Shown here piece after piece: positions 10,001 to 63,009 of a stretch of 64,000 bases of DNA (within the stretch, counting starts at the first letter, position 1; each line of letters starts with the position of its first letter). Both the position numbers and the translations under genes were made by a program. This DNA comes from Myxococcota bacterium (GTDB lineage Bacteria > Myxococcota_A > UBA9042 > PHBI01 > JAWLBL01). The stretch covers positions 70,325 to 134,324 of the forward strand of contig JAWLBL010000021.1 of NCBI GenBank assembly GCA_041687695.1. Direction: 5' to 3'. The notes beneath the pieces were generated by a model. It searched no databases. It saw only the letters and a program-made list of their open reading frames with translations, and was not told the DNA's origin.

Positions 10001-11063
10001 GGAGCAGCTCGGTCGCACGCTGCGGAGCCCCGCCCGGAGCCCCGAGGCCGACCGCCTGCACGCCCGCATCGCGGCCGACCCGCAGCTCGACAACAAGACC
10101 AAGGAGCGCCTCGTCGAGGAGCTGGACCTCGCGTTGTCGATGCGCGCGCTGAACCTCTTCCTCAGCCAGGCCGGCAACGACGGCCAGAGCCTCATCCGCG
10201 CGGTCCTCGAGCGGGCCGGCCAGGGCACCCACCGCGGCGGCGTGAAGAAGGCCGCCGGCTCGAGCTGGTACTGGCCGCCCGAGCTGAAGGAGCTCCAGGG
10301 GCGCTGGACGAAGAGCCAGGCCGAGGTCGCCGGGCTCGAGGGCCAGGCGATGAAGCTGCTCGAGCAGGGCCTCGACGGGCGCGACGAGGGGCTGGCGCTC
10401 ATCACCGGCGCCACGAGCCGCCTCGACGGCGTCCTGCGCGACTTCGAGGCCGCGCGGGGCGAGCACTACGTCGACCACCCGCGCGAGTTCGTCGACATGA
10501 AGACGAAGATGGAGGCGAGCCAGCGGCAGGCGCGGAAGGTGCGCGCCGCCTTCGACCAGGCCGCGGTGGAGGTCGAGGACCGCTCGGTCGAGCCGGGCGA
10601 CGGCCCGCCTGCGGTCTGTGAGGCCACGGCGGAACCCGGGCCCGACTGCAGCGAGGAGCGCGCGGCCGCGCACGCAGAGGACCGCGAGCGCGTGGAGACG
10701 GCGCAGCGCCTCGAGCGGGCGCGCAAGATTCAGCAGATGAGCGCCTACTGCCGGGGCTTCAAGCTGCAGGAGACCAAGCTCCTCGGCGAAGCGCGCGACG
10801 CCTTCTTCCAAAGCGACGCGACGCGCATCCTGACGACCTCGCTCGCGCAGGGCTACGACGAATGGATCGGCCACCTGCTCGCTTATCGCGACGCCTACCG
10901 CGACGCCCAGTGGCCGGTCGAGACCTGGAAGATCAGCGCCGACGCCAAGAGCCGCCGCAACCTCTTCTACGAGCCCGACGTCGACGCCTTCGAGAAGGTC
11001 TGGCGCGACGCCCTCGGCAGCGAGCCGCCGTCGACCCTCGTCTGGCGCCTCCGGTCGTACTGA
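7029..11063 (+). CDS. Large (1344 aa) DUF4157-domain protein; Gly/Ser-rich and coiled-coil C-terminal regions, function unknown (putative effector/toxin)
   Basis: The N-terminus matches the DUF4157 signature (LPHRGAMEQAFGRDLGGVRAFVGD...GGDVAFADPSPSRELVAHEVTHVLQG). The ATG at 7029 is preceded by a GAGGAGGGAG Shine-Dalgarno. The ORF-track start at 6945 lies inside the upstream pseudogene and lacks an RBS. Confidence 0.7.
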   Translation: MQRQEHRSSPEGARSAEERSPQREAGDGVRGQLRELPSYAAQRAALVPGGPIHLSRRPGGADGGRSPAEAFGQATSGPARELPHRGAMEQAFGRDLGGVRAFVGDPQARAGLSALGASGAASGGDVAFADPSPSRELVAHEVTHVLQGGGGVQAKSEVAPAGDAAEVEADQVAARVAAGQPAGPIGAAGGGLRLKRAHRTTLDGGKVRADDEDKTPLQVGERDPADPNVSVSTNDLGDGRVVVGTEKKSDATFGTASTRSVTTDDKVEDPVATGKALLAEMRSATKDIDEHRLPELEARRERLEAAKATPEGSAEANGPRFDVDAELAAVEEERKRLVAKKERLAARTEELGERLGDEAAAKGLTVEELKAISAEVGGTSVEVAYRSEGSQTFEEGSGFAVEHDGVRIEGGSLVSKTDADGNQSGEGKRYSGKIGVKDGRVGGELEQKAADGSSVKGSFHANEDGAAAEGTWAKADGRSTTVGATVDKDGGSASYASKGADGVSHELGAHHKKGKDGAEDEWGLTAGLGKADTDADKKAAKDKDNVDGNLEATLSTTRVGGKGDLTLPRWGDDARSFTFSCGGSVYIDCTVTVSAKGPPPKYTLVARAHGSISPGGTLNGEEGGAGASATAKVTLALDKTITRVYDGPKLEAQLACYRELELAPPSTLEKWRRGLGLLADEGALTEVGDKDESGSSAGVELGASGDAKLGGVGVGAKASYEGQRSVRLTEEKIGADKNRITAHIATAQEVSGGASASVVTGGEVTYEYEWDEAETVEFELSTRDPKTYGATLQRIREATTREELDALAMALGSTGWTSAEGHSETVGGKGTFEQDLGGGQKVGLDVGGSSTDAFKSEISLKDGKIGAKGSGTQTDELAVSSAAGTEMLGVENVHGGAASSDGSEASLELSSKTTEKTPGLGSGKSLVGEVMARSSIIEGVRSYLTKEETTLSGTGYRSADVWRLVGYASQKGVWSGAVGVALPGPPAQKAWEQLGRTLRSPARSPEADRLHARIAADPQLDNKTKERLVEELDLALSMRALNLFLSQAGNDGQSLIRAVLERAGQGTHRGGVKKAAGSSWYWPPELKELQGRWTKSQAEVAGLEGQAMKLLEQGLDGRDEGLALITGATSRLDGVLRDFEAARGEHYVDHPREFVDMKTKMEASQRQARKVRAAFDQAAVEVEDRSVEPGDGPPAVCEATAEPGPDCSEERAAAHAEDRERVETAQRLERARKIQQMSAYCRGFKLQETKLLGEARDAFFQSDATRILTTSLAQGYDEWIGHLLAYRDAYRDAQWPVETWKISADAKSRRNLFYEPDVDAFEKVWRDALGSEPPSTLVWRLRSY

Positions 11064-12680: not shown

Positions 12681-12906
12681 CCCGGCGCAGGCGCTCCCAT
12701 GGCCAGGGTGCGCGCGCCCCCTGGCCAGAGGAGCCCTCGATGAAGCGCTGGGAGCTCGTGCTCGCCCTGACGCCGCGCGCGGCCTGCGCGCCGGGGAACC
12801 CCGACAAAGGCGATGTGGGGACGGCGTTGGAGGCCATGTTGGCCTTTCGCGAAGTGGAAGCGACTCGGCCCCTTCTCTAGCGCGGGCGCGTTCACCAAGT
12901 TCAGGC

Positions 12907-15282
12907 ATGACACACGGCCTCCGTTCGAGCTGGCTGCTGCTCGGCCTGGCGCTCGCCGGCCTCCTCGGCGGCGCGGCGCTGTGGCTCGCCGGCGCGCCCG
13001 GGGCGGCCGACGCGCTGTGGCTGGGCGCGACGGCCGTGGCGTTCGTGCCGCTGCTCGTGCGGGTCACGCGCGCCCTCCTCCGGCGCGAGGCGGGGGTCGA
13101 CCTCATCGCCGTGCTGGCCCTGGCCGGCGCGATGCTGCTGGGCGAGTACCTGGCCGGCGCCGTCATCGGGCTGATGCTGGCCAGCGGCCGGCTGCTCGAG
13201 CGGCGCGCCAGCGCGCGGGCCATGCGCGAGCTCACGGCGCTGCTGGCGCGGGCGCCGAGGGTCGCCCACCGCGTCGAGGGCGAGGCCGTGGTCACGGTCG
13301 ACGTGGACGCCGTCGGTCCGGGCGACCTGCTGCTGGTCAAGGAGGCCGACGTGCTCCCGGTCGACGGCCTGCTCGCCGACGAGCACGCGACCCTCGACGC
13401 GTCGGCGCTGACCGGCGAGGCGCGGCCGGTCGAGCGCGCCTCGGGCGACCGGCTCGACAGCGGCACGGTCAACGTCGGCCGCGCGTTCCGGATGCGCGCG
13501 ACGGCGTCGGCCGCCGAGAGCACCTACGCCGGCGTCGTCCGGCTGGTCGCGTCGGCCCAGCACGACAAGGCGCCGGTCGCCCGGCTGGCCGACCGCTACG
13601 CTGCGCTGTTCATCCCGTTCACGCTGGCGGTGGCCGCGGCGGCCTGGGCCCTGTCCGGCGACCCGGTGCGCGCCCTCGCCGTGCTGGTCGTGGCGACGCC
13701 CTGCCCGCTGCTGCTCGCCGTGCCCATCGCCATCGTCGCCGGGGTCTCCCGGGCCGCCCGCCGCGGCGTCATCGTCAAGGGCGGCGGGGCGCTGGAGCTG
13801 CTGGCGCGGGCCGACCGGGTGTTCCTGGACAAGACGGGGACGCTGACGTCGGGCGCGGCGAGCCTGTCGCGCGTCGCGACGACCGGCGGGTGGACCGACG
13901 AGGCGAGGCTGCTCGCGCTCGCCGGCTCGGTCGAGCAGGTCTCGTCCCACGTGCTCGCCGGGGCGATCGCGCGCGCCGCGCGAGCGCGGGGCCTGGCGCT
14001 GTCCTTCCCGGCCGAGGTGCGCGAGGAGCCGGGCGCGGGCGTCGAGGGGACGGTCGACGGCCGGCGCGTGCGGGTGGGCCGCTACGACTGGGTGACGCGG
14101 GACGCCGAGGCCGACGACGCCGAGGCGGGCTTTCGCCGTCGGGCCACGCGCACGCTGGGGTCGGCGGTGTTCGTGGCCGTCGACGGGGCGCTCGCCGGGG
14201 CGCTGCTCCTCGAGGACCCCATCCGGCTGGAGACGCCGCGCACCCTGCGCGCCCTGCGCCGCGCCGGGGTGCGGCAGATCGACGTGCTGACGGGGGACCA
14301 CCCCGCCGTCGCCGCCTCGGTGGGCGCCGCGCTGGGCCTCGACCGGGTCCACGCGCAGCTGTCGCCCGAGGAGAAGGTGCGGACGGTGGCCGAGGCGCGG
14401 TCGGCCGGGTCCAAGGTCATGGTCGGCGACGGCATCAACGACGCGCCGGCCCTGGCGGCGGCCGACGTGGGGGTCGCCATGGGGGCGCGCGGTGCGACCG
14501 CCTCGTCCGAGGCCGCGGACGTGGTGCTGACGACCGACCGCTTCGACCGGCTGGTCGACGCGATCCTGATGGCGCAGCGGTCGCGCAGCGTGGCCTTGCA
14601 GAGCGTGGCGCTCGGCATGGGGTTGTCGGTGGTCGCGATGGGCGCGGCGGCCTTCGGGCTGCTCGCGCCCGTGGTCGGGGCGTTCCTGCAGGAGGGCATC
14701 GATCTGCTGGCCATCGGCTGGGCGCTGCGGGCCCTGGGGCCGGGCGCGGCCGAGCGGGCGCGCGACCGCAAGCGCCGGGTCCTGAGCCCCGAGGCCGCCG
14801 CGCACCTGGCCGCCGACCACGAGCACCTGGTCCCGACGCTCGAGCGCTTCCGGAACCTGGCCGACCAGCTCGACGCGCTGCCGCGGCGGCAGGTCTGCGA
14901 GGAGCTGCGGTCGTTGAACCGCTTTCTGAAGACCGATCTCCTGGCCCACGAGCGGGCCGACGAGGCCGAGGTCTACCCGGCCCTCGCCGCGCGGCTCGAG
15001 GGCGACGATCCGCTGGGGACCATGAGCCGCACGCACCAGGAGATCTTCCACCTGGCGCGGCTGCTCGATCTGCTGCTCCACGAGCTGCCCGCCGAAGGCC
15101 CCGAGCCCGAGGACCTGCCCGACCTGCGGCGGCTGCTCTATGGCCTCCACGCGGTGCTGCGCCTGCACTTCGCGCAGGAAGAGGAGCTGTACCAGAGCGT
15201 GACCGACGACGGCGGCGGCCGGCGGCGCCCCCGACGCGCCCGCGGCCCGAGCCCCCTCGGCCCGCCCGTCACCAGCCGGTGA
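12907..15282 (+). CDS. P1B-5-type heavy-metal P-type ATPase with C-terminal hemerythrin-like domain
   Basis: DKTGTLT phosphorylation motif, TGEARP actuator motif and MVGDGINDAPALAAADVGVAMG hinge. TM motif TPCPLL (PCP rather than CPC). No N-terminal HMA domain. C-terminal H..HxxxE...H..HFAQEEE hemerythrin-like signature. Confidence 0.9.
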   Translation: MTHGLRSSWLLLGLALAGLLGGAALWLAGAPGAADALWLGATAVAFVPLLVRVTRALLRREAGVDLIAVLALAGAMLLGEYLAGAVIGLMLASGRLLERRASARAMRELTALLARAPRVAHRVEGEAVVTVDVDAVGPGDLLLVKEADVLPVDGLLADEHATLDASALTGEARPVERASGDRLDSGTVNVGRAFRMRATASAAESTYAGVVRLVASAQHDKAPVARLADRYAALFIPFTLAVAAAAWALSGDPVRALAVLVVATPCPLLLAVPIAIVAGVSRAARRGVIVKGGGALELLARADRVFLDKTGTLTSGAASLSRVATTGGWTDEARLLALAGSVEQVSSHVLAGAIARAARARGLALSFPAEVREEPGAGVEGTVDGRRVRVGRYDWVTRDAEADDAEAGFRRRATRTLGSAVFVAVDGALAGALLLEDPIRLETPRTLRALRRAGVRQIDVLTGDHPAVAASVGAALGLDRVHAQLSPEEKVRTVAEARSAGSKVMVGDGINDAPALAAADVGVAMGARGATASSEAADVVLTTDRFDRLVDAILMAQRSRSVALQSVALGMGLSVVAMGAAAFGLLAPVVGAFLQEGIDLLAIGWALRALGPGAAERARDRKRRVLSPEAAAHLAADHEHLVPTLERFRNLADQLDALPRRQVCEELRSLNRFLKTDLLAHERADEAEVYPALAARLEGDDPLGTMSRTHQEIFHLARLLDLLLHELPAEGPEPEDLPDLRRLLYGLHAVLRLHFAQEEELYQSVTDDGGGRRRPRRARGPSPLGPPVTSR

Positions 15283-15940: not shown

Positions 15941-16348
15941 ATGAAGGACGGGTCGGAGAGGAAGCTGAGCGACAACCCCATCCACCTGGGGCTGGGGGCG
16001 ACAGCGGTGCCGCAGCCGCCGTTCACGGGGATGGCGTGGTACGCCGACTACGTCGCTCGGCACGCCAGTGACGGGGCCGAGGGCCGGCTGGTCTCGATGC
16101 ACACCTTCGACGGGCCTTGGGACAGCTGGGAGATGCATCCGAGCGGCGCCGAGGTCGTGTTGTGCACCGCGGGGCGGCTGACGCTGGTGCAACAGATCGA
16201 GGGTGACGAGGTCCGCACGACCCTGGAGGCCGGCGAATATGCCATCAACCCGCCGGGGGTGTGGCACACGGCCGACGCCGACCAGCCCGTCACCGCGGTC
16301 TTCATCACGGCCGGCCTCGGCACCGAGCACCGCCCGCGCCAGCGCTGA
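15941..16348 (+). CDS. Cupin-domain protein
   Basis: ATG at 15941 after GAAGGAG. Cupin motifs (WEMHPSGAEVVLCTAGRLTL ... EYAINPPGVWHTA). Confidence 0.7.
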   Translation: MKDGSERKLSDNPIHLGLGATAVPQPPFTGMAWYADYVARHASDGAEGRLVSMHTFDGPWDSWEMHPSGAEVVLCTAGRLTLVQQIEGDEVRTTLEAGEYAINPPGVWHTADADQPVTAVFITAGLGTEHRPRQR

Positions 16349-16639
16349 CGGAGCCGCCGCACGTCAGGGCGCGCGCGGCTCGCAGCGGAGGTCCACCGTC
16401 GGGCGGCGTCGATGGATGCACTCGAACACCTCTTGCAGCGTTGGCCGCTCGGCCAGCCGGCCGGAAGGACATCCCAGCTCAGGTGCTCATGGACCGGCTC
16501 GCCCAAGCCTCGGGCCTCATGTTGGCCGGTGGTTCCGGGTCCACGGTCGCGCGGACCGTCACGGGTCACAGCCCCAGACGGCGAGGCCCCGGGCCGGGAG
16601 GGCCTCGCCGCTGGCGGGGGTGTTTTTGCCGCTCAGGCG

Positions 16640-17460
16640 ACCGGTTCGGCCACGCCCGGCTCCGCACCGCCACGACACCGCCGCCTCGCCCCCTGGGACC
16701 GCCGGTTTCCAGAGGGTGTCGCAGAAGCCCAACCGGAGTGCTCCACCTTGGTGGAGCCCCCATCCGGCGCAGCTTGCTGCGCCGGGGTTGGCGGCCAGAT
16801 CCCGGCGGCAAGCCGCCGGGGCCGGGGCTCCGGCAAGCCGGAGCACTCCAAGACCGCCTCCGCCGGCATCAACACGACACCCTCTTCCAGCCGGCCTCGC
16901 GCTCGCACCAGCACGACCTCCGACTCTCGGCCCCTGGGACCGCCGATTTCCAGGGGGTGTCGCAGAAGCCCAACCGGAGTGCTCCACCTTGGTGGAGCCC
17001 CCATCCGGCGCAGCTTGCTGCGCCGGGGTTGGCGGCCAGATCCCGGCGGCAAGCCGCCGGGGCCGGGGCTCCGGCAAGCCGGAGCACTCCAAGACCGCCT
17101 CCGCCGGCATCAACACGACACCCTCTTCCAGCCGGCCTCGCGCTCGCACCAGCACGACCTCCGACTCTCGGCCCCTGGGACCGCCGATTTCCAGAGGGTG
17201 TCGCAGAACCCCAACCGGAGTGCTCCACCTTGGTGGAGCCCCCATCCGGCGCAGCTTGCTGCGCCGTGGTTGGCGGCCAGATCCCGGCGGCAAGCCGCCG
17301 GGGCCGGGGCTCCGGCAAGCCGGAGCACTCCAAGGCCGCCTCCGCCGGCATCAGTACGACACCCTCTTCCAGCCGGCCTCACGCTCGCACCAGCACGACC
17401 TCCGACTCTCGGCCCCTGGGACCGCCGGCTTCCAGCCGGCCTCGCGCTCGCACCTGCACG
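16640..17460. repeat. Tandem array (~3.4 copies) of a 241-bp unit, each unit made of four GC-rich inverted repeats with CTTG/CAAG centres
   Basis: Unit starts at 16690, 16931, 17172 and 17413. Core: GGAGTGCTCCACCTTGGTGGAGC..CCGGCGCAGCTTGCTGCGCCGG..CCCGGCGGCAAGCCGCCGGG..GCTCCGGCAAGCCGGAGCACTCC. All ORFs across it are Pro/Arg/Ala-rich in every frame. Confidence 0.9.
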
Positions 17461-17612
17461 ACCTCAGCGTCCTCGCCCTCCCGCGCCGGCTTGGCCGGCG
17501 CTATGGACCGCGCCGGCCATGCCGGCGCTCTCGGATCTGGGGCGCACCACGGCACCGGCATGCCCCCCCTCCTGGGACCCGACTTCGTCGCTCTCCTCGC
17601 GCCGAAGAGCGC

Positions 17613-18935
17613 CTACGCCAAGCGCATGCTGGACAGCAGCACGAACCGAAGCGCGGCCCGCGAACCTCGCATGCAGCGAAGCCGAGCGGCCCAGGTCCGC
17701 CGGCGGACCAGTGCGCCCCGCCTCGGACGCCACCTTGGCCGCCTCACCTTCAGGAACGCCCCCCACAAGACCGCCTGGATGAGGGCCACCCTGCGATGGC
17801 GCTCGCGCGCCGCGAAGAAGCCGGTCCCCCCCGCCCCTACGGACATGAAGGTCCCCATCGCCTCCCGGAATCGGCGGGTCACCTGGCGCCTCTCGTCCCG
17901 AGCCCTCCGCTGCGCGTCCCGCACCCACGCGACCAGGTCGTCGTCCGAGGGCCTCACCACGTCCCGCCCGCCCTCGGCCGCGACGGCGGCCAGCCGCTCG
18001 AACGCATGGAAGCTCTCGTCCCGCGGCCACGGCTCAACGTGCTCGGAATCGACCGCCTCGTACATCCGCAGCACCCGCTCGCAGCTGCGCAGCATCGCCT
18101 TCGTCGACCCCCTCTCCCTCTCGCCCAACCAGGTCAACAGGGCCCCAAGGCGCTCGTCCGCGGGCCCCGTCGCCCCCTTCGCCACGGCCTCCGCCACCTG
18201 CCCCCGGATGAACGCCTCGAAGCTGTCGTGCGGGGACCCGGCCTCGCCCTCCCCTTCGTCGCCTTCCGCCTCGTCCACCTCCGACTCCCACGACTCACCC
18301 GTATCCTCGTCGTCCTCCGGCGCCTCCCCCGCCGCCAGACGCGATCTCGCCTCGCCCTGCACGAACGCCTCGAGCCCCGGCAGCCCCGCCCGCCTCAGCC
18401 GACCCCACACCTCGGGCGACGCCGCCTCCCCGTCCCGGCTCAGCGCCGCCAGGTCGCTCAGGTGCTCCGTCGCCGAATCCAGCAGCCGCAACAGCCGTCC
18501 CGGCTCCTCCCCCCGCGCGCACCGACACAGGAAGTACGTGTAGCTGTGCGTCGCGATCCCCAGCCGCGCCAGGACGTCCAGAGGGTGCGTCCCATCGGCC
18601 AGCCCCTCGGCCAGCCGCACCTCCCGCCCCGCCGCGAGCCACGCCAGGTGCTCACCATGCGCCCGGTCGAGCCTCCCCAGCAGCTCCTCCTCCGAGCCCT
18701 CGGACCGGTCCGACGCCACCCAGTCCCAGACCGCCTGAAGGTACGGCAGCGAGCGCGGCAACCCGAACACCCCCAGCAGCCGCTCCTCGAGATCCAGCAC
18801 CTCCTCGAACCGCTCGCCGTCCTCCCCCGGCCCCCCGGCCGCCTTCAGCGCCTCGGACTCGCGCGCCAGCTCACGCAGCAGCGCCCGAGGGTCCAGCTCA
18901 CGCCCCGCTCCGACCGTTCTCCAGCCCTTCGTCAT
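17613..18935 (-). CDS. Hypothetical acidic protein; C-terminal ~60 aa probably read-through into repeat-adjacent sequence
   Basis: Long ORF with protein-like N-terminal 380 aa (Asp/Glu-rich). The Arg-rich tail is suspect. Confidence 0.45.
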   Translation of the reverse strand: MTKGWRTVGAGRELDPRALLRELARESEALKAAGGPGEDGERFEEVLDLEERLLGVFGLPRSLPYLQAVWDWVASDRSEGSEEELLGRLDRAHGEHLAWLAAGREVRLAEGLADGTHPLDVLARLGIATHSYTYFLCRCARGEEPGRLLRLLDSATEHLSDLAALSRDGEAASPEVWGRLRRAGLPGLEAFVQGEARSRLAAGEAPEDDEDTGESWESEVDEAEGDEGEGEAGSPHDSFEAFIRGQVAEAVAKGATGPADERLGALLTWLGERERGSTKAMLRSCERVLRMYEAVDSEHVEPWPRDESFHAFERLAAVAAEGGRDVVRPSDDDLVAWVRDAQRRARDERRQVTRRFREAMGTFMSVGAGGTGFFAARERHRRVALIQAVLWGAFLKVRRPRWRPRRGALVRRRTWAARLRCMRGSRAALRFVLLSSMRLA

Positions 18936-19414: not shown

Positions 19415-20383
19415 ATGACCGCGCCGCAACCACCGACCGAACCGAGCCTGGGCGACTACGTCGTCCACCCGAAGTTCCCCGAGTGGGGCCCGGGCAAGGT
19501 CGCGCTCGTCGAGGGCGGCAACGTGTGGGTCTTCTTCAGGGACTACGCGGGCTCGACACCCGAGGACTCCCGGCGCGCCAAGCGCTTCAAGCTGGCCGAC
19601 CTCCCGCTCGAGCGCGCGGACCTCACGTCCGACGTGGTCCTCGACAACCTCCCGCCCTACGAGCGCAACGGCGGCGTCCTCATGCTGCCGCACCAGCGCC
19701 TGACCCTGGCCGACGCGAAGAAGGTCTTCCTCACCGAGTTCCCCCTCGGCTTCAAAGACGGGACCTACATCGGCGACCTCAGGATCGGCGAGCGCGCCTA
19801 CAAGCTCGCCGCCCACGAGCGCTTCACCGCCTTGCTCGGCGGCGGTCAGCTCGCGCAGCTCCTGGCCAGCGGGCAGGTCGCCGAGGCCGCCTCGCGCGCC
19901 CTGCAAGCGGTCACCAAGCAGCTCAACCTGCTGTCCCCCTACGAGGCCATGGCCTTCAAGGACGCCCTCGCCGACGAGCCCGCGGCCGCCCGCTACCTCC
20001 GCGGCCTCGACGCCCTCCTCCAGGCCCCGACCCTGACCGCCCCAACCTTCGAGGCCTACCTCGCCGGCTTCTTCGCCCTCCCCCAGGTCGGCAACTCACG
20101 CGTCCACTCCTGGCCCGTCTGCAGCGCCCTGCCCTTCATCGCCGCCCCCACCCGCTTCATGTTCCTCAAGCCCGGCGAGACCCAGACCGCCGTCAACCGC
20201 TTCGCCTGGGACATCAAGTACACCCCCCGCCCCAACTACGACACCTACAAGCGCCTCCACTCCTTCGCCGCCTGGCTCCAGACCGAGCTAGCCGACATGG
20301 GCTGCGCGGACTACATCGATGTGCAGTCGTTCATGTTCATCACCTGCGGCAGTAGCCACGAAGGCGCTGTGGCCGCATGTTGA
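19415..20383 (+). CDS. Hypothetical protein with DUF3553-like N-terminus (GDYVVHPKFPEWGPGKV)
   Basis: ATG at 19415 (ORF track 18953, in frame) begins the protein-like region; the N-terminal 154 aa of the longer ORF is Arg/Pro-rich. The overlapping 18934 ORF in another frame is low-complexity. Confidence 0.55.
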   Translation: MTAPQPPTEPSLGDYVVHPKFPEWGPGKVALVEGGNVWVFFRDYAGSTPEDSRRAKRFKLADLPLERADLTSDVVLDNLPPYERNGGVLMLPHQRLTLADAKKVFLTEFPLGFKDGTYIGDLRIGERAYKLAAHERFTALLGGGQLAQLLASGQVAEAASRALQAVTKQLNLLSPYEAMAFKDALADEPAAARYLRGLDALLQAPTLTAPTFEAYLAGFFALPQVGNSRVHSWPVCSALPFIAAPTRFMFLKPGETQTAVNRFAWDIKYTPRPNYDTYKRLHSFAAWLQTELADMGCADYIDVQSFMFITCGSSHEGAVAAC

Positions 20384-20434
20384 GAAACAGTTTATTGTCA
20401 GCGCGGCTGGGCCGGATATTCTGGACCGCCCTAG

Positions 20435-20463
20435 AAAGCGGGAAGTGGCGAGGCCTGACCCTA
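20435..20463 (+). repeat. Left direct repeat (att-like) of the lower-GC island
   Basis: GAAAGCGGGAAGTGGCGAGGCCTGACCCT matches 26394-26423 (GAAAGTGAGAAGTGGCTAGGCCTGACCCCT) in direct orientation. GC content drops immediately downstream. Confidence 0.5.
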
Positions 20464-20660
20464 AGCATACGGACTTCCAGCCGGAGGCGCGGGACGGTCG
20501 AGCGTCGTGTCACGACCCGCGTGGCACGTGCGCTAGCGCCGTTGTCAGTTCACTCCCCGTTGGGCTAGACTATCACCTGATATTAGGACGTCTCTCCTGA
20601 TGCCTCAGCAGCCCGAGGTGCGTGCGATGCCGAGTGACGCCGGCCCCCCCCCCGACATGG

Positions 20661-20849
20661 ATGACCCTCGATGAATTTACTGAGCATCTCAGAGTTAGCC
20701 GTTAGAAGCTCTACAACCTCGCGCAGGGCGGCGAGATCCCCTGCTTCAAGGTCGCCGGTCGAAGAGGTTTCTATCGCCCGAAGATCGACGAATGGATGCT
20801 GGCGCAGGGCCCTGGGTCGGCGACCCCGAAGGGGGAACATCGTGAGTAG
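20661..20849 (+). pseudogene. Excisionase/HTH_17-like DNA-binding ORF interrupted by an in-frame TAG
   Basis: Reads MTLDEFTEHLRVSR*KLYNLAQGGEIPCFKVAGRRGFYRPKIDEWMLAQGP. This is the classic Xis/AlpA-type helix-turn-helix pattern, with an amber codon at 20703-20705 in the recognition-helix region. Confidence 0.6.
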
Positions 20850-20867
20850 ATCGCGCGGGGTAGCAGC

Positions 20868-23800
20868 ATGAGCGTCACAGAACACCTTGAAGGCCTTGCC
20901 GCCGCGATCAACGATGGTCGCCCCCTCGTCGTGCTCATGGGCCAGGATGCGTGGCGGGTCGGCACTCGGCCGGATCCTGCGGTACTCGCAGCGCTCAAGC
21001 GTGCCGAGAGATTGGAAGTGGACTCCGATCCGAGAGGGCTCGTTTCTCTGCTCTCCGTTGAGCCCCTGCCCGAAGACTTCTTTCAATGGCTCGCTGACCA
21101 GTACCTTCGGCAGGTCGAACCTGAGTGGTTTGAGCCCATCGCACGCCTCCCATTAAACGCATTCTTCACGACTAGCGTGGACCCTACACTTTCGAGGGCG
21201 CTTCGCGTTGGGGGCCGTGATGTTGAGGCAGTTCTGAGCAAGTCGGACACCCCCGCGGCGCCGCGCCACCGACGCAATCTCCACTTGAGCTACCTTTTCG
21301 GTCGCGCCGGTGAAATGAACCTCAGTGAGGCGCCGCCGAAGTCGACTCAGGAGTTGCGACGACGAACTGCATTGCACGCGAATGCCCTCCTCGCCCGACT
21401 CGTCGAAACCACCACGTCGCTCGGGGTGCTCGCTATTGACGGGTTGACCTGTGGTAGCGACTGGCTGTCGGCCGAATCGCTGTATGGCGTGCTGTCCGCG
21501 TTCAAGCCCGGCCAAGTCTTCTGGTTCGGGTGGGACTCTTCGCTGAGCACAGGCGACGCGGCCCTGATGGAGGAACTGGCGGCGCCCAATGGCCCCATCA
21601 CTTTCGTGCCCGAGAGGCTCTCTAGCTCTCTCCGCGCGCTCACACTGGCGGGCAGAATTGAGCCGCTTCGCGCGGCGTCCTTGGCGGCGACGAACGCCGT
21701 GACTATCGGCGAATCGCTCCTCGAGATTGAGCCCTCGACGCGACTCAAGACCTCGACGGCCGCTAGTATCGTCGACGACACGTGGCTCGCGCCACTTCCC
21801 GTGCTCGGTGAGGATGAGTTCTTCGAGGAGTTCCGACGATTCCACGGTCAGGTGGAGGAAGCGCGCCGGCTCGTCGAGGGGGTGAGGCGGGGGTTCGCCA
21901 TAGAGCGGGCCTTTGAGAATCGGCTTCGCGATCGAGTCCAGAACGCACTCAAGGACGCACCGCGGCTCAAGGAACCGATTCTGCTTCATGGTCAGTCCGG
22001 AACAGGCAAGAGCATCGCACTCGCGCGCCTCGCGCTCTCCGTTCGGAAGGATCGCCGATATCCGGTGCTAGTTGCCAGCCGCGCATCACGGTTGCCCGCG
22101 GTAGACGAGCTTGACGAGTTCTGTATGCGCGCCGAGGAGGCCGGCGCCGAAGCAACCCTTCTTATCTGTGATGCGAATGCGCAGGCGGCTCGGTATCGGG
22201 ACCTTCTGCGGGGCTTTCGAAGTCGAGGAAGACGAGTCGTTGTGGTCGGTAGCGCGTATCGCCTCATTGACCAGAAGCAGGCTGCGGGAGAAGGAAGGCA
22301 TCTCATCGAGGCGCCCTCGACGCTGGACGACGAAGAAGCTGCGAATCTCACCGCGGTTCTCCGGGAGCACGCCAGCCTCAAGTACACGTCCTCAACATCT
22401 CAATTTCTGCTGCCGGCCGTCTACCGCATTCTGCCGGAGGTGCGCCCTCGATTGGCCGCCGGTCTGGCTCACGAAGCGCGGGTCGCGGAGGATGATCTCA
22501 GGTCACGCGGGACAACCATTCGGCAGGGCAAGCCCCAGCCCGCCGGTGCGCTTGGACAGGCGCTCATAGATGCGGGCTTGATTGAACCGAAAGAACTTCT
22601 CGATCTGCGACTTCAGGAGTTCATGGGAGCCCTGAGCGACGCGGCATCGAAGGCGATCGACTACGTAATGGTGCCAGGGAAGCTGGACTGCCCTGTTCCC
22701 ATCAACCTGCTGATGCGGGCGGTAGGTGGGAGCGAGAGCCTGGTTGATATCGCATCCCTGTTCTCTGGAATCGACCTGTTTCGATGGAGCACAAACGACG
22801 AGGACGATATCTTCATTCACCCTCGCCTTCGAGTCGAAGCAGAGTTGGTCACAGCTCGACGGCTCGGAACGTCGACTGCTGAGGCACAGATAGCGGTTGA
22901 TCTCCTGAAAGCAGCGAACCCCACTACACATGGAAGCTGCGAGCGACGGTTCGTCCTGGACCTTGTTCATCGTCTGGGTCCCGACGGCCCCTACGGACCG
23001 TGCTACGCCGACCACTATCTGGACGTCGCACGCGCGCTTACGGAAATGCGCGAGCGGCGCGGGCTCAGCGACCCGAGCCTCATGCTCCAGGAAGCTCGTC
23101 TCAGACGACGGGTTTTTCGAGATGCCCGGCCGAACGAACGGCACAACCCTGCGACTATCCTGGACGAGGCACGGCAGATCGTCGATCTCGCCCTCGACGA
23201 GTTCGGCGCGGCCCGCTCGCCTGGGTTGCGCCGCGTTTGCTCAATGCTTCGGGTGGAGCGCGCCGCCATCTACGGCTTTCGCGCTGTGCAACAGCTACAG
23301 TCTGGTGCATCCCAAGATGAGACTTGGCAGTACTACGAGGCAGCACGAGACGCTGCTCGCAGTGCCTTGTTCTCTGCGGACGCGTACCACGCGATCGACG
23401 TGAGCCTTTGGATACCGCGCCGACTGCTCGAGGATGGGAACTGGGATTCCGTCCGGAAGGCGGAACTGACCGCCGACATATGGGATGGTCTCGAGCGCGT
23501 CGACGCTGACGATTTGGACGCAGACCAACGTGGCGTCTTCGAGGAGCAACGCTTCAAGGTCTCGAAAGCACTTGGGAGCGACGAGCTTGAATTGGCGGCT
23601 CTCCAGGCACTCGAGTCGATGGGGTCATCCGCGGGGCTGTTCCTGCAAGCGCGAGCGATCGGCGGCGATCTGCGGGGCCGCGGGATGGCGGACGATGGTG
23701 AACGGGAGCGAGCACGACGTGTAGTCGGGTTCCTAACTGAGAAGGGACCGCGGATCCGGGAGGACGCACGATGTCTTCGGTATCTCCTGCGCGCGACCTG

Positions 23801-25513: not shown

Positions 25514-25856
25514 ACCCCAGGGGCCACGTCCGTAAGTATCAGAGGTGTCAGGGTTCCCCATTTCCCACCCGTCGCCACAGACAGGGACCTCGGCGGCCTG
25601 CGGCTTCATAGGTGCGTCGGTGCGTGACGGCGATTGGGCGGGCCCCAGGGGCCACGTCCGTAGAAGTTAAGTTGCTCGCGGATGGGCGACCGAGGCTGCA
25701 GGCGGCGTGTCCCAGGGGTCAAGTCCCAACTTACAAACAACTCGAGTGCAGACGGCTGGTTACGGGTGGCCCATGGTGAAGGAGTATGCAAGTCGCGACT
25801 TGCCCCCTCGCCCCTCTGACCCCTCGCCCCTCAGTTGCGACCATCCGGAGGAAGTG

Positions 25857-26183
25857 ATGCCCTCGCTCAGTGAATATGTAAACGTCTACAACACAGCCCT
25901 TGAGGTGCTTCGTGTCAAGGGATATCGCGTCTGGTTCGACAAGGAGGCCGATATGTACTGTGCTGAGAAGGACGGATGGGATTTCATGGCCGATGGCCCG
26001 ATTTCGCTGCTCGGCCTCGTAGCAATCTATGAACATCAAAACCCTTCAACATACAGAGACTACTGGTGGCGGCAAGAAGGGCCGCTTGAGTTCAACAAAC
26101 TCCCCAGCGAGGCTCCAGATTGCATACCTCTTGGGGTGAAGAGTTCCGAGGGCGGGGCGGGGGCAAAGGGGTCAGACACCTAA
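25857..26183 (+). CDS. Small hypothetical protein (108 aa)
   Basis: GGAGG RBS then ATG at 25857. AT-richer codon usage (island-like). No recognisable domain. Confidence 0.4.
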   Translation: MPSLSEYVNVYNTALEVLRVKGYRVWFDKEADMYCAEKDGWDFMADGPISLLGLVAIYEHQNPSTYRDYWWRQEGPLEFNKLPSEAPDCIPLGVKSSEGGAGAKGSDT

Positions 26184-48749: not shown

Positions 48750-49367
48750 GTGACCTACGTACGCCCCATTACCGCCCGCTACCTCGACCCGGTCGACCTG
48801 GTCTGGACCACCACCGCCAAGCGCCTGGGCCTGACGCTGCGCCGCGACCCGACCATCTACTCGATGACGGACGGCACCGGCCTGCTCGCCCTGGGCCCCC
48901 GCTCGGACCTCGACGAGGACGACTGCGTGGCCCAGATGATCCTCCACGAGCTGTGCCACTGGATCGTCAACGGCCTCGAGTCGTTCTCCGAGCGCGACTG
49001 GGGCTTCCCGCTGGATCTAGAGGTCTGCTGGCGCGAGCACGCCTGTCTGCGCCTGCAGGCCTGGCTCTCGGACCGCTACGGCCTGCGCGCGATGTTCGGC
49101 CCCACGGGCTTCCACCGCCCCTACTGGGACCGCCTGCCCGCCGACGTGCTCGAGCCCCTCGACGACTCGGAGTGGGAGGCCAAGGTCGTCGCCCACACGG
49201 CCGTCTGCATCGAGCGCGCGCAAGGCGACCCCTGGTTCGCCCCCCTCGACGCCGCCTTCCGCGCCACCCGCGCCATCGCCGAGACCCTGCAGCCCTTCAT
49301 GCCCGACTACGCCACCGAGCACGACGGCGACACCCTCCCCAGCCTCTGGGACCTCGCCCGCGACTGA
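48750..49367 (+). CDS. Hypothetical HExxH-motif protein
   Basis: MILHELCHWIVNGLE motif. GTG start. Protein-like composition. Confidence 0.5.
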   Translation: MTYVRPITARYLDPVDLVWTTTAKRLGLTLRRDPTIYSMTDGTGLLALGPRSDLDEDDCVAQMILHELCHWIVNGLESFSERDWGFPLDLEVCWREHACLRLQAWLSDRYGLRAMFGPTGFHRPYWDRLPADVLEPLDDSEWEAKVVAHTAVCIERAQGDPWFAPLDAAFRATRAIAETLQPFMPDYATEHDGDTLPSLWDLARD

Positions 49368-49404
49368 GCGACGCTGGCCGCGTTCGCCCATCAGATCGCC
49401 CGCT

Positions 49405-49660
49405 TCCAGAGACTGCAGCAGAAGGCCACTCGGAGTGCTCCACCTTGGTGGAGCCCCCATCCGGCGCAGCTTGCTGCGCCGGGTGGGCGGCCAGATCCCG
49501 GCGGCAAGCCGCCGGGGCCGGGGCTCCGGCAAGCCGGAGCACTCCAAGGCCGCCTCCGCCGGCGGCGATACGACACCCTCTCCCAGCCGGCCAGACCCTG
49601 CGACCCACCCAGCAGCCGCCGTTCCTGGGACCGCCGGCTTCCAGCCGGCCCGGCCCGTCG
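49405..49660. repeat. Dispersed single copy of the 241-bp hairpin-cluster unit found at 16640-17460
   Basis: Contains the same four inverted repeats (GGAGTGCTCCACCTTGGTGGAGC..CCGGCGCAGCTTGCTGCGCCGG..CCCGGCGGCAAGCCGCCGGG..GCTCCGGCAAGCCGGAGCACTCC) and the GGGACCGCCGGCTTCCAGCCGG tail. Confidence 0.85.
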
Positions 49661-49676: not shown

Positions 49677-51650
49677 CTACTTCCCTGCCTCCTTGGCGCG
49701 CTCGGCGGCCAGCGCCTCGCAGCCTTCGGCGTTGCCGGCGTCACAGGCCAGCTGTAGGAGCCGCAGCCGGTCGGCCTTCTGGTAGGGCTTGGTCTTCTTG
49801 GCCCGCCCGAGGCACGCCGCGCCGTCGCCGGCCGCGCACGCCTCCTCCTGGTCGAGCAGCGCCGTCACCTCGGGCGCCCGCTTGCTCCACCCGCAGCTCT
49901 GCGCGCCCTTGGTGCGGGCGCACGCCTCGGCCGCGATCTCCAGCCCTCGTCGCCCCTCGCGCAGCGCCGGGTCCTTGCCCTCGACCAGCCAGCGCACCAA
50001 CGCCCCGCAGTCCGCGTCGCGCCCCTGCTGGCAGCCCTCCTCCAGCATCGCCCGCCCACGCGCCACGTCCGGCGGTCCGTGCTTGCCGTCCAGCAACCAC
50101 CCCGCCAGGTAGCGGCACGCGTCCAGGTGCCCCAGGTCGCACCCGCGGGCCATCGCCGCCCGCGCCTTGCCGCCGTCGGCCGCCTCCCCTCGCTCGGGGC
50201 CCGACCACCAGTCGGCCACCCACACGCAAGCCTCGCCCAGCCCCAGCTGGCAGGCGCGCTCGTAGGCGAGCCCCGGGTTGTCGCGCCACGACGCGCCCAA
50301 CTGCTCGGGAAAGCGCTGGTAGAAGCGGTTGGCCAACCGTCCGGCCTCGAAGCAGCTCTGCGCGTCGCCCTTGTCGCACTTGCCGGCCAGCGCGGCGGCG
50401 GCCTTGAGCCCCTCGTGCCGGAAGCGGCCCTCGCAGGCCGGACTCATCCCGTAGCCGTCGTCGGCGTCCAGGTTCGGACACAGCTTCACGTACATCGCCG
50501 CCGCGCCGCGCAGGTCCGGCTTGCCCCCCGCGCCCCGCTCCAGCGCCCCCGCCAGGCGCTCACACGCCTCGCCCTGCTTGGCCTTGCACAGCTTTCCGAG
50601 CTGCGCCATCCCCGCCTTGGGATCGGCCGGTCCGCCCCGCCCATCGATCAGGTCCTCGGCCAGCTCCACGCACGCGTAGGTCGACCCCAGCACGCAGGCC
50701 CGCTCGGTCAGTCCCCGGGCCCTCGGTCCCGCGTCCTCCACCGCCTCCTTGCCCCCATGGCGCAGCAGGAACGCGCCCTGCGAACAGCACGACGGCTCGC
50801 CCAGCTCGCACCCCAGCGCGTACCACCTCAGCTTGCCCTGCACGTCCTCCTTCGGCGTCTTGGCGCCCGCCCGCAGGCAATGCCCCGGGTTGAGCCCGGC
50901 CTGGCACAGCAGCCCTCGGAACCTCGCCTCGCGCGGCTCGTCCTTGGCGACCGCCGCGTCCAGCGCCAGCTTCTCGCAGGTCTCGGCGTGCCCCAGCTCG
51001 CAGCCCCGCTCGCGCAGCGCCTGGGCCTTGGTGACGTCCTTGGCCCAGCCCCAGTTGCCACGCCCTATCTTCAACGCCTCGCCGTACTCACCGCAGGCCG
51101 CGGCGTTGCCCGCCTCGCACGCCTGCTCCAGCCGCTTGCGCGCCTCGGCCGGGTCCGCGGCCCCGCCCGTGCCCTTGGCGACGGCCCACGCCAGCGCCAC
51201 GCACGACGCCTCGTGACCGGCGTCACACCCCGCCCGGAACAGCTTGGCGGCGCGCTCGGGGTCCTTGGCGACGCCCCCGACACCCAGCTCCAGCAGCCGC
51301 CCCAGCCGCACGCACCCGGCCTGCTCCCCGGCCTTGCACGCCTTTTCGAACAGCGACGCGGCCCGCGTGAAGCGGTCCGCCTCATGGCCCCTCTCGATGC
51401 GCCGCCCCAGCGTCACGCACGCTGGCGCGTGCTTGCCCGAGCACGCCCGCTCCAGCGCCGCGAGGTACTCCTCCTCGGTGGCGTCGAACACGGCCAGCCG
51501 CTCGCAGCTGGCCCCGTCCCGCTTGCCGCACTTGCGCTTGCAGTCCTCGACCCCGTCGCACGGCAGCTTCGGCCCCGCCGCCGCGACCCCACCACCCAGC
51601 ACCACGCCCACGGCGACCAGCGCCGCCGCCACCCACGATGTGCCCTTCAT
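49677..51650 (-). CDS. Secreted Sel1-like repeat (SLR/TPR-like) protein
   Basis: Signal peptide MKGTSWVAAALVAVGVVLGG. More than 12 repeats of A..Lf.kAC.aG...gC..LG.ll..G.G...D...A with paired Cys. Confidence 0.75.
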   Translation of the reverse strand: MKGTSWVAAALVAVGVVLGGGVAAAGPKLPCDGVEDCKRKCGKRDGASCERLAVFDATEEEYLAALERACSGKHAPACVTLGRRIERGHEADRFTRAASLFEKACKAGEQAGCVRLGRLLELGVGGVAKDPERAAKLFRAGCDAGHEASCVALAWAVAKGTGGAADPAEARKRLEQACEAGNAAACGEYGEALKIGRGNWGWAKDVTKAQALRERGCELGHAETCEKLALDAAVAKDEPREARFRGLLCQAGLNPGHCLRAGAKTPKEDVQGKLRWYALGCELGEPSCCSQGAFLLRHGGKEAVEDAGPRARGLTERACVLGSTYACVELAEDLIDGRGGPADPKAGMAQLGKLCKAKQGEACERLAGALERGAGGKPDLRGAAAMYVKLCPNLDADDGYGMSPACEGRFRHEGLKAAAALAGKCDKGDAQSCFEAGRLANRFYQRFPEQLGASWRDNPGLAYERACQLGLGEACVWVADWWSGPERGEAADGGKARAAMARGCDLGHLDACRYLAGWLLDGKHGPPDVARGRAMLEEGCQQGRDADCGALVRWLVEGKDPALREGRRGLEIAAEACARTKGAQSCGWSKRAPEVTALLDQEEACAAGDGAACLGRAKKTKPYQKADRLRLLQLACDAGNAEGCEALAAERAKEAGK

Positions 51651-51789
51651 GGTCCCCCCAAGGTTCCGAGACCGCTTCCATATCGCAGCCCTGCCTCCTT
51701 TGAAAGGGCCCCCCCGTCAGTCGTTCGGACGGTCGCGACCGCCCCCTCAGCCGCAGGCGACGCCCGCTTCCCGTCTCCCCAGCTCACTT

Positions 51790-61197: not shown

Positions 61198-63009
61198 TTA
61201 CCGCGGAAACGTGTCGCTGGCGTCGGCAGCCTGGCGGGTCGGTGATTCAGGCTGTCGTGGGCTGGGGGCGCCTCGGATCAACGCCGCTTGCGGACGCGGT
61301 GGCGAGCTCGGCCGCGAGCGCGTCACGGGTCGCCGCGACCCGCTCGAGCCGCGTCGCATAGGGCGCGACCGGGGCGGGGCTTCGAGCGGGACGGCGGGTG
61401 GGGCAGCGTCTGGCGCGGCGGTCGAGGCTCGGTGCAGGCCAGGAGCAAGGCGGACGCGATGAGCAGGGGGATGGGCGGGTGCATGGGCCTGCGATGGAGC
61501 AACCTCGGTGCCAGACTGCGGCGACGCTGGGACAGGCGCGGCTGCAGCGTGCAGCGCCGGAGCCGCGGCATGGCGCGTGTCGGAGGTGACACGGAGCGTG
61601 TCCCCAGGCCCGGCCGGCTGGGAGCCGGCGAGCCCACCCGGACGCAAGGTTCGGGGGCGGACCGGCCGGCTGGAAGCCTTTCGATCCCAGGCCCGGACGC
61701 AAGGTTCGGCGGAGGTGCGGCCGGCTGGAAGCCGGCGAGCCCAGGGGGAATTGGGGCGGCCTGGAGTGCCCTCGCTAGCGAGGGCTCGTCGGATCGCGCC
61801 GCTCGCGGCGCCCTCACGATGAAGTCGCACGTTCGGCCGGCTGGAAGCCGGCGATCCCAGGCCCGGACGCAAGGTTCGGCGGAGGTGCGGCCGGCTGGAA
61901 GCCGGCGATCCCAGACAGCAGACGCCGGGGAACGGCGGCGGCTCGGCGGAGGCTGCGAGGGCCCAGGTGGCGCGCACGCGCACGAGGTCGCAAGGGTCGG
62001 CGAGCGCGGCGCTGAAGGCCACGAGCTCGGCCGGCGGCGGGGTTCCGAGCCGGACGAGACCGAGGAGGCCGTGAAAGCGAAGAGCGGACAGGCCCGTGGC
62101 TTCGACGGCAGCGCGAAGGAACGGCCTCTCCGAGGGCTGCGGCGCGTCGGACACGAGCCGCGCGATCTCGATGATCTCGTCGAGGCGGGCGCCGCGCGCG
62201 AGGTGACGCCGGGCCTCCTCGACCATGGCGGCGCGATCGGTCTCGAGGCGATTCATCGGGAAGTCGCGCGCCAGGTCGACGAGGTGGGGCGGCAGGTGGC
62301 TGTCGAAGCTCTCGGGGTCGTAGGTACGCCAGTCACGGAGGTGCTCGGCCAGGTCCCGGAGTCCGTCTCGTCCAACCAGCCAAGCGCGGCGCCTATCGAA
62401 GGCGTCGTCGATGATGGCGCGACCTCCGAGCGATTCGAGCTCCGCCTCGAGGCGCCGCGCGAAGGCGGCCGGGCCGAGGTGGACGAGCAGGTCGGCGGCC
62501 GGCGCCAGGAGGCGATCGCGCGCGTCCTCGGCAAGCGCCGGGTGAGTGCGGAAGAGGCGGTCGAGCGCGTCGGGTCGCAGCTCGGCGAGGGCGAAGCGCC
62601 TCTCCCAGTCCTCGAGGCGGTCCCAGACTTCGGCGAGCAGCGGTAGCGAGGCTGGCCGGTCCAGAGTCCGGGTGACGATCTCGGTCTCGCGATCGACGTC
62701 ATCACCTGGGTCCGTCGTCGGTGAGGCCTTCACAGCGAGGCGGTCGTGGCGGATCCAGGCTTCGTAGAGGGGCTCGAAGTACCCGTCCGGCGGCTCGTAG
62801 GTGATGCAGAGGTCGTACAGAAGGGCCTGTCGCTCGTCGGCGTGGAAGCTCGCGATCAGCTCGAAGGCGAGGCGACGTTCGTCGGGACCGCGACACAAGG
62901 CGAGGAGATCCAGCAGGCTGGCGAGCGGGGCGCCGTGCGCCTCATCGGGGCCCCACCGGTCTCCTCGCGCGATCTTCCGTTCCCGAGCGGCCGCCGAGGC
63001 GGCGACCAA
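61198..63009 (-). CDS. Hypothetical helical protein; C-terminal ~250 aa is translated from the hairpin-repeat field (61590-61930) and is doubtful
   Basis: N-terminal 350 aa protein-like. No in-frame stop before 61198. Confidence 0.4.
   Translation of the reverse strand: MVAASAAARERKIARGDRWGPDEAHGAPLASLLDLLALCRGPDERRLAFELIASFHADERQALLYDLCITYEPPDGYFEPLYEAWIRHDRLAVKASPTTDPGDDVDRETEIVTRTLDRPASLPLLAEVWDRLEDWERRFALAELRPDALDRLFRTHPALAEDARDRLLAPAADLLVHLGPAAFARRLEAELESLGGRAIIDDAFDRRRAWLVGRDGLRDLAEHLRDWRTYDPESFDSHLPPHLVDLARDFPMNRLETDRAAMVEEARRHLARGARLDEIIEIARLVSDAPQPSERPFLRAAVEATGLSALRFHGLLGLVRLGTPPPAELVAFSAALADPCDLVRVRATWALAASAEPPPFPGVCCLGSPASSRPHLRRTLRPGLGSPASSRPNVRLHREGAASGAIRRALASEGTPGRPNSPWARRLPAGRTSAEPCVRAWDRKASSRPVRPRTLRPGGLAGSQPAGPGDTLRVTSDTRHAAAPALHAAAAPVPASPQSGTEVAPSQAHAPAHPPAHRVRLAPGLHRASTAAPDAAPPAVPLEAPPRSRPMRRGSSGSRRPVTRSRPSSPPRPQAALIRGAPSPRQPESPTRQAADASDTFPR
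61590..61930. repeat. Cluster of inverted-orientation fragments of the hairpin-repeat family (CCGGCTGGAAGCCGGCG..CCCGGACGCAAGGTTCGGCGG x4-5; GAGTGCCCTCGCTAGCGAGGGCTC)
   Basis: Reverse complement of the GGGACCGCCGGCTTCCAGCCGG tail motif of the 241-bp unit. Confidence 0.7.

Follow-up and report, generated by a model that had tools for sequence, protein, structure and literature searches.

A 64,000-nt stretch of the genome of a Myxococcota bacterium (contig JAWLBL010000021.1; hereafter the window, with a G+C content of about 73%) carries a tandem array of GC-rich palindromic DNA with a period of 241 bp and, elsewhere in the same stretch, a solo copy of the repeated element. This element is probably of the REPIN type, that is, an inverted doublet of repetitive extragenic palindromes (REPs), here of a GGAG-tagged and CTTG-centred class, which lies in the loop of a second palindrome and has been amplified in tandem by recombination. 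As a kind of feature it is already known, and its sequence variant is uncatalogued. The evidence comes from the anatomy of the element, from covariation of its hairpin among other genomes, and from the linkage in relatives of the same tagged hairpin to genes for REP-associated tyrosine transposases (RAYTs).

Anatomy of the repeated element

Tandem Repeats Finder places the array at 16685-17435 (3.1 copies, 97% matches), and ungapped comparison together with blastn of the unit against the window extends the homology from 16663 to about 17478. Every full unit contains the four hairpins GCTCCAC-CTTG-GTGGAGC, CCGGCGCAG-CTTG-CTGCGCCGG, CCCGGCGG-CAAG-CCGCCGGG and GCTCCGG-CAAG-CCGGAGC, enclosed by GGAGTGCTCC...GGAGCACTCC. 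When the whole window was scanned for perfect tetraloop hairpins with a stem of at least 6 bp and a CTTG or CAAG centre, 16 were found, all of them in the four copies of the element, where Markov shuffles predict 0.23 ± 0.5; the 23-mer GGAGTGCTCCACCTTGGTGGAGC of hairpin 1 likewise occurs four times against 0 expected. The solo copy lies at 49386-49592, with 89% identity over 208 nt (about 98% in the core and about 84% in the flanks), and its flank homology reaches 49650. An earlier sequence-only reading of this DNA had described the 241-bp repeat, the four enclosed hairpins and a dispersed copy after an HExxH gene, and these results bear it out on all three.

Each element consists of two inverted REPs, tags outward, separated by a 69-nt spacer, and in each REP a conserved guide, GGAG-T, stands 1 nt from the foot of a GC-rich hairpin that has 7 bp and is centred on CTTG. 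The spacer holds a second, untagged pair of CTTG/CAAG hairpins, each half of the element being made up of a tagged REP, CCCC and an inner hairpin. The unit is a composite palindrome, the left half of its core repeating the right half in inverted form (aligned with its own reverse complement, the unit scores 96, where shuffles score 18 ± 16). When read along one strand, the halves are GGAGTGCTCC-AC-CTTG-GT-GGAGC-CCCC...CCGGCG(CAG)CTTG and GGAGTGCTCC-GG-CTTG-CC-GGAGC-CCCC...CCGGCG(G)CTTG, and the differences between them are paired, such that each small hairpin stays intact. The array and its associated palindromic module, which is described below, comprise the following features.

16663..17478, plus strand: putative tandem REPIN cluster, with three full 241-bp units (flank, REPIN, flank) and a terminal unit without the element (Tandem Repeats Finder, blastn, alignment)
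16711..16721, plus strand: outer inverted-repeat arm AGAGGGTGTCG, 11 bp, pairing with CGACACCCTCT at 16875-16885
16735..16849, plus strand: putative REPIN core of unit 1 (hairpin scan, energy folding), made up of a tagged REP, GGAGT-GCTCCAC-CTTG-GTGGAGC, inner hairpins at 16764-16785 and 16801-16820, and an inverted tagged REP, GCTCCGG-CAAG-CCGGAGC-ACTCC
16976..17090, plus strand: putative REPIN core of unit 2
17217..17331, plus strand: putative REPIN core of unit 3
17415..17441, plus strand: intact, unoccupied 27-bp module CCTGGGACCGCCGGCTTCCAGCCGGCC ending the array (blastn, 0 mismatches)
49432..49545, plus strand: putative REPIN core of the solo copy, with a 1-nt deletion in its central spacer, in a homologous segment of about 49386-49650
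49624..49650, plus strand: intact 27-bp module directly downstream of the solo copy (blastn)
61612..61915, minus strand: four 27-bp modules (61612, 61719, 61835, 61889) within a 55-nt tandem, with no REPIN core

As a free strand, the 116-nt core folds most stably into one long hairpin and not into four small ones (-91.0 against -63.3 kcal/mol with RNA parameters, and -53.2 against -38.7 kcal/mol with DNA parameters). This lowest-energy fold, the outward tags and the 69-nt spacer agree with the description of a REPIN or bacterial interspersed mosaic element (BIME). The outer hairpins, 1 and 4, each have a perfect 7-bp stem, a 4-nt loop and the basal sequence GCTC, in keeping with the published description of a REP hairpin (a basal stem of 7-20 nt that is paired throughout and has three or more G or C in its first four bases, closed by a loop of 2-5 nt; Quentin et al. 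2018, PMC6006769). In Pseudomonas fluorescens SBW25, Bertels and Rainey described REPs as GCTTGC-centred palindromes behind short tags, and REPINs as inverted doublets that form long hairpins, show compensatory changes, occur in tandem flank-REPIN-flank clusters and are inserted into other REPINs (PMC3116915); each of these features is seen in the window element. REP dimers that are reiterated in tandem with flanking DNA, or inserted in small GC-rich palindromes, have also been reported (PMC3733652).

The hairpin unit and RAYT genes in other genomes

A scan with GGAGTGCTCCNNCTTGNNGGAGC, taking one genome per species, recovered at least 102 loci, and the counts given here for relatives refer to the loci listed. 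Most are from metagenome-assembled genomes of Planctomycetota and Verrucomicrobiota, with some from Acidobacteriota and Ignavibacteria, and one is a WOR-3 contig of 38% GC whose stem is identical to that of the window. The general unit reads GGAGTGC-N5-CTTG-N5'-GC, with 19 fixed bases common across these phyla, and eight REP units in the window, at two loci, both intergenic, fit it exactly. The loop-closing position is G.A in 93 of 166 units; at the other stem positions about 97% of pairs are Watson-Crick, and G.T pairs are few, with 4 on either strand.

Covariation was measured on 27 distinct units from other genomes, in which GGAG is invariant but was also required by the pattern that collected them. 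Compensatory changes on both sides are seen in each of the five variable stem pairs, 89.9% of cells are paired where shuffles give 70.5%, and the covariation score of 0.556 (0.196 in shuffles) was equalled in 0 of 500 shuffles and collapses in register-shift controls. Covariation had been proposed as a check in the sequence-only reading, and for the outer hairpin the check succeeds among copies from other genomes; the window's own copies, with cores 97-100% identical, are uninformative.

Doublets in relatives are predominantly oriented as in the window (74 with tags outward, 11 with tags inward and 9 direct), with spacers mostly of 60-150 nt, and some form tandem arrays (227 bp x1.9 in L001, 94 bp x3.6 in L010, 159 bp x2 in L069 and 97 bp x2 in L105). 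The clusters are extragenic in 109 of 117 cases, with 20 in convergent, 45 in co-directional and 8 in divergent contexts. No target-site duplication was detected in the 10-nt flanks of the 74 relatives' doublets, where direct identity is at the chance level of 2.5/10 and just a short inverted extension (CTTT...AAAG) is present.

The unit is linked to RAYT genes in these genomes. A strict regular expression for HUH plus YxxNP matched none of the six-frame open reading frames (ORFs) of the relatives' loci, the motif of this clade being YVHxNAV; tblastn with the RayT of E. coli against the same loci identified two genes (in L094 and L053), each lying between inverted units whose tags face the gene. 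Three further homologues, fetched independently (L104, L105 and L106), are bracketed likewise by GGAGTGCGGCGACT(T/G)GTCGCCGC units, which brings the RAYT genes bracketed by the unit to five of the five examined, all in relatives. The L094 protein aligns over the full profile of NCBIfam NF047646 (REP-associated tyrosine transposase; E = 3.6e-21), has TnpA-REP (4er8) as its best PDB match, and carries the HUH motif HYHFV and the tyrosine motif YVHHNAV; at E <= 1e-5 its family numbers 5,357 proteins, and one of these is named as a RAYT by its source. RAYTs bracketed by the unit have the motifs NHYHF, WH and YVHHNAV, often along with a Pro/Ala-rich N-terminal extension. Among the best 120 RAYT homologues, screened for a very GC-rich genome, only moderately GC-rich ones were found.

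Some of these RAYT frames (L053 6158-6982 and L094 2679-3413; proteins P0035 and P0083) read through the flanking REP units, and the called proteins therefore carry REP-encoded tails, as seen in C-termini ending ...FGSAPA and in N-terminal 'EPPHSK' segments. On the metagenomic contig of L106 (1007-4991), the RAYT gene and its flanking units have a HerA/DUF87 ATPase gene on one side and two Cas6 genes on the other.

By analogy with other REPINs, a RAYT, an HUH/Y1 endonuclease related to the TnpA of IS200/IS605, would be encoded once elsewhere in the genome of the bacterium studied here. It would recognise the hairpin and its 5' guide on single-stranded DNA, and would cut and rejoin DNA without target-site duplications, the element itself being non-autonomous. 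The composite of module half, REPIN, module half and 58-nt spacer has probably been reiterated by unequal recombination, with gene conversion acting to homogenise the units. The copies may be mobile, and they may serve the host, for example by protecting mRNA 3' ends or by binding protein.

Several observations weigh against a REPIN-type element. At 0-2 nt 5' of the foot of the hairpin, REPs are expected to have a GT[AG]G guide, and here it reads GGAG. In the window the copies have direct TTCCAG on either side, which can be read as a target-site duplication, and their homology between the solo copy and the array runs 22-35 nt past the tags, which is not the case in relatives. The 64 kb window was found to have no gene of transposase, HUH or Y1 type, and the link of the window to a mainly planctomycete RAYT clade rests on the 19 shared fixed bases of the unit; in that clade, moreover, the NF047646 score of the L094 protein (75.6 bits) falls below the cut-off of 80, and Pfam Y1_Tnp scores of 18.5 and 21.7 bits fall below the threshold of 23. 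In the metagenome collection there were 0 matches to the variant specific to the window (an outer hairpin followed by CCCC, scanned both with the inner hairpin and without it), and no insertion polymorphism was seen between the window and a sister strain at 98.6-98.7% identity, in which both sites are identically occupied. As to the guide, degenerate forms have been reported (GYAG, GYRG, GTRG, GTMG and GTGG), and GGAG is not among them (PMC3733652); feet other than GT[AG]G have been accepted for the REP-like sequences of classes 2.6 and 3 (PMC6006769). The GGAGTGC/CTTG motif is absent from the survey supplements, where the families of R. baltica differ from it (PMC3733652), and searches of the literature for the motif string returned unrelated primer matches only.

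The palindromic module, the sister strain and the neighbouring genes

The element is flanked by a separate repeat family, a 27-bp module of sequence CCTGGGAyCGCCGGCTTCCAGCCGGCC that forms the hairpin GCCGGC-TTCCA-GCCGGC. Comparison with the unoccupied module indicates that in occupied array units the whole insert sits in the module loop, at TTCCAG, and the array as a whole reads as module half, insert, module half and 58-nt spacer, three times over, followed by an unoccupied unit. The sequences at 61.6-61.9 kb, which had been taken in the sequence-only reading for inverted fragments of the repeat, belong to this module and not to the element: by blastn they match unit positions 28-50 and 222-234 only, and none matches the core at positions 73-187.

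These outlying modules lie in a repeat-dense region (60776-63443), within the 3' part of a minus-strand ORF (61201-63126) that has coding-type GC in its first ~900 nt only; since GC is flat by codon position in that 3' part, the modules would lie beyond the gene or have invaded its 3' end. The same region contains a 55-nt inverted repeat (61104-61158 with 61762-61816), and a third repeat family, built on the palindrome GACGTTACCGCGGWAACGTGAC, forms 54-nt tandems beside GGCAGGCCGGCGGG motifs at 56162-56341, 61007-61293 and 63279-63459.

The position of the insert in the module bears on whether the element is a conventional miniature inverted-repeat transposable element (MITE), a deletion derivative of an insertion sequence (IS) with ends AGAGGGTGTCG and CGACACCCTCT, which was moved by a DDE transposase and duplicated a 6-bp TTCCAG target on entering the 27-bp module. 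TTCCAG does stand directly on either side of the 11-bp outer inverted repeat in three of three array units (16707-16712 and 16885-16890 in the first), and the unoccupied modules at 17415-17441 and 49624-49650 have it once. We nevertheless regard this origin as improbable: the pattern represents one or two independent insertion events only, the solo copy has a degenerate left outer arm (AGAGACTGCAG) and TCCCAG as its right repeat, direct duplication is absent from the 74 relatives' doublets, and the window has no DDE transposase with such ends. MITEs are recognised by terminal inverted repeats matching those of an IS and by target duplications at varied sites, and no such IS was found. Y1 enzymes make no target-site duplications; the appearance of one would be given by an IS200/IS605-type right end if that end resembled its target.

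The sister strain (assembly GCA_041690335.1, contigs JAWLHM010000061 and JAWLHM010000028) was compared over 33 kb. In both strains the array comprises 3.1 units, and all 12 differences between the two arrays fall in unit 2, each being a variant that is present in another unit. This is a pattern of gene conversion, by which the array units are homogenised. The solo copy is identical and occupies the same site in both. Differences between the strains form a mosaic: 43% of 320-nt windows have none, and between 29269 and 50220, as compared with the sister locus L107, there are none over about 39-44 kb and 48-50 kb, and up to 55 per kb at 31-32 kb. Such a mosaic suggests recent recombination between lineages, and because of it the identity of the solo copy says nothing on constraint, and was rejected as evidence for it. 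The best Ppx homologues from beyond these two strains share 49-61% identity and belong to a mixture of phyla.

The same comparison could be taken to mean that these copies are fossils, immobile relics of REPINs whose RAYT has been lost from the lineage, kept and amplified only by recombination through tandem duplication and gene conversion. Such an account would fit the identical occupancy of both sites, without presence or absence polymorphism, the evolution of the array by gene conversion, the presence of two loci only in 64 kb, the lack of the variant in metagenomes and the lack of a RAYT in the window. We think it rather unlikely, as the REP hairpins and their tags are intact and identical in 8/8 units while flanks and spacers differ (among the inner hairpins, a G>T change at 17267 in unit 3 has broken one basal pair of hairpin 2 without compensation), and as two strains at about 98.7% identity, with mosaic divergence, are too close for mobility to show.

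The array and the solo copy are surrounded by the following genes, and analysis of GC at third codon positions (GC3) places both loci between convergent genes.

15941..16348, plus strand: cupin gene with its 3' end toward the array (GC3 0.93; Pfam Cupin_2; a 135-aa gene in the sister strain)
16603..16629, plus strand: hairpin and T-run resembling an intrinsic terminator for the cupin gene, upstream of the array
17613..18935, minus strand: orphan 440-aa gene with its 3' end toward the array (GC3 0.92; found in two sister assemblies only)
48750..49367, plus strand: 205-aa gene with its 3' end toward the solo copy
49677..51716, minus strand: Sel1-repeat gene with its 3' end toward the solo copy

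The array is non-coding. In the sister assembly a 456-aa hypothetical protein is annotated over it (L108 2441-3811, equivalent to window 16412-17782), and if this coding sequence were real it would encode a repeat protein; the ORF at 16412-17782 on the plus strand is indeed open and was called by the NCBI pipeline, as are all three plus-strand frames open. We give this next to no credence, and the annotation is spurious. The period of 241 is not a multiple of 3, so that the units are read in three frames as unrelated peptides; GC by codon position is flat at 0.72/0.75/0.72, against about 0.7/0.5/0.93 in neighbouring genes; and at 73% GC chance alone should leave long frames open. A CRISPR array consists of 24-48 bp repeats with unique spacers of similar size, and was rejected because the repeat here recurs every 241 bp and the DNA between elements is repeated with it, at 92-97% identity for the unit as a whole. 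The sequence-only reading was right on both counts, having excluded CRISPR and noted that the repeat is explained by no gene model.

That reading had also pointed to RNA, in that either strand could make two CUUG-tetraloop hairpins per unit. On this view the array would be a structured non-coding or cis-acting RNA element, its transcribed units forming such hairpins and serving as small RNAs, as stability elements or as terminators. CUUG is a stable RNA tetraloop, the element has folding z-scores of -4.3 and -3.4, and the covariation of the hairpin stems is what RNA would also explain. Both sites lie at convergent gene ends, where hairpins in 3' untranslated regions could protect mRNAs, and REPs have been reported to affect mRNA stability and termination (PMC6006769), so that the element may have a side effect at the level of RNA. 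An RNA element of this kind is nonetheless very improbable. The element has dyad symmetry, relatives carry it in either orientation, and the unit brackets RAYT genes there; its rare G.T pairs are balanced between the strands, and stems are about 97% Watson-Crick; and the ground state of the free strand is one long hairpin and not a set of tetraloop hairpins. No promoter-like site was found. The cupin gene ends in a terminator that precedes the array, which makes it unlikely that the array serves as a terminator for that gene. At the Rfam gathering score the window had 0 matches, and 18 relatives' loci had only tRNA and an FMN riboswitch, away from the elements; relaxed thresholds yielded only sub-threshold, miRNA-like noise. 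The RNA-tetraloop interpretation is thus unsupported. The same reading had allowed that the family might instead prove to be a transposon terminal sequence, which comes near to what was found, namely sites of a REP/RAYT system that consist of a hairpin and its guide.

The DNA that separates the array from the stop codon of the 440-aa gene holds two more GC-rich hairpins (17484-17530) with a common stem, GCGCCGGC-TTG-GCCGGCGC and GCGCCGGC-CAT-GCCGGCGC, which are the source of the weak miRNA-like Rfam noise there. The window contains no rRNA or tRNA genes, and its NCBIfam matches include none that is specific to a lineage. Further along, a low-GC island (20200-29200; 58-66% against about 73%) contains an nSTAND NTPase gene (20868-24299), a 203-bp x2 tandem (26583-26990) and a repeat family, GGGGCCACGTCCGTAAAAGTTAA, at 25636, 26578 and 26781, which also occurs at 63039 with an inverted partner at 63220. 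One sister contig ends at about 20221 of the window, the edge of this island, which may be strain-variable or may break assemblies. About 800 bp are duplicated at 94-99% identity, 6.6 kb apart (6264-6871 vs 12864-13686), the duplicates standing at or just upstream of the starts of two large genes, an eCIS_core-domain gene (6906-11063) and the ORF at 12813-15282. A large minus-strand ORF (45549-48140) contains repeats of 108-111 nt rich in Cys, Gly and Asp codons, and has no Pfam or NCBIfam match.

Comparison with known systems

For annotation, the array would be selfish or structural repeat DNA, with no gene and no new RNA class, and current understanding is not overturned. The REP class to which we assign it is widespread, and with over 5,000 proteins in the RAYT family linked to it, a non-canonical guide and conservation across phyla it would be a useful natural system for studying how HUH/Y1 enzymes read a guide and a hairpin, and whether REP-RAYT pairs cross phyla. 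We tentatively propose, while holding it somewhat short of probable, that GGAGTGC-N5-CTTG-N5'-GC represents an uncatalogued REP/RAYT system with a GGAG guide and with 19 fixed bases that are all but constant in Planctomycetota, Verrucomicrobiota, Acidobacteriota, WOR-3 and the present lineage, in which the element has gained a second hairpin pair and targets a palindrome loop. If so, either the code by which RAYTs recognise DNA would be unusually constrained, or RAYTs and REPs would have spread horizontally time and again.

MITEs such as Correia, ERIC and RUP are also small, non-coding, palindromic, multicopy and intergenic; they differ in having IS-type terminal inverted repeats, target-site duplications and a DDE transposase, whereas the present class has no duplication at the 74 relatives' copies and is linked to Y1 enzymes. 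Among TnpA-Y1 enzymes, the relatives' RAYTs are alike to subclass 2.8 of Quentin et al. 2018 in NHYHF, WH, YVHHNAV, the N-terminal extension and the read-through of REPs, a resemblance of motifs only. Subclass 2.8, with an HYH variant of HUH, W[YH] and YIHYNP, is found in Cyanobacteria and has relatives in other phyla (PMC6006769); it is reported with GT[AG]G REPs, in contrast to the GGAG found here, mainly in Planctomycetota.

Insertion into the loop of a GC-rich palindrome has a parallel in Thermomicrobium roseum, in which GTAG-23 doublets lie in CCGSSCC(n3-4)GGSSCGG (Di Nocera et al. 2013, PMC3733652). As in that case, the palindrome of the window, GCCGGC-TTCCA-GCCGGC, also exists unoccupied (PMC3733652); the palindrome sequence and the REP family of T. 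roseum are different ones, and only two occupied sites are seen here.

There is also a close likeness to the REPINs or BIMEs and RAYTs of P. fluorescens SBW25 (GI-GIII) and E. coli, with which the window element has in common a GC-rich hairpin behind a 5' guide. The REPs of SBW25 have the same CTTG centre (GGGGGCTTGCCCCC, GGGAGCTTGCTCCC). REPINs and BIMEs likewise form doublets with guides outward that fold into a long hairpin, occupy extragenic sites and avoid divergent promoter regions, and REPINs are known in tandem flank-REPIN-flank clusters and inserted into or beside other repeats (PMC3116915, PMC3733652, PMC6006769). The bracketing of a single-copy Y1/HUH gene by the unit, as seen in relatives, is a further point in common. 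The differences are that the textbook guide is GT[AG]G and here is GGAG, that REPs are usually described as species-specific (PMC6006769), whereas here the same 19 fixed bases recur across several phyla, and that the version in the window adds to the REPIN spacer an inner, untagged pair of CTTG/CAAG hairpins.

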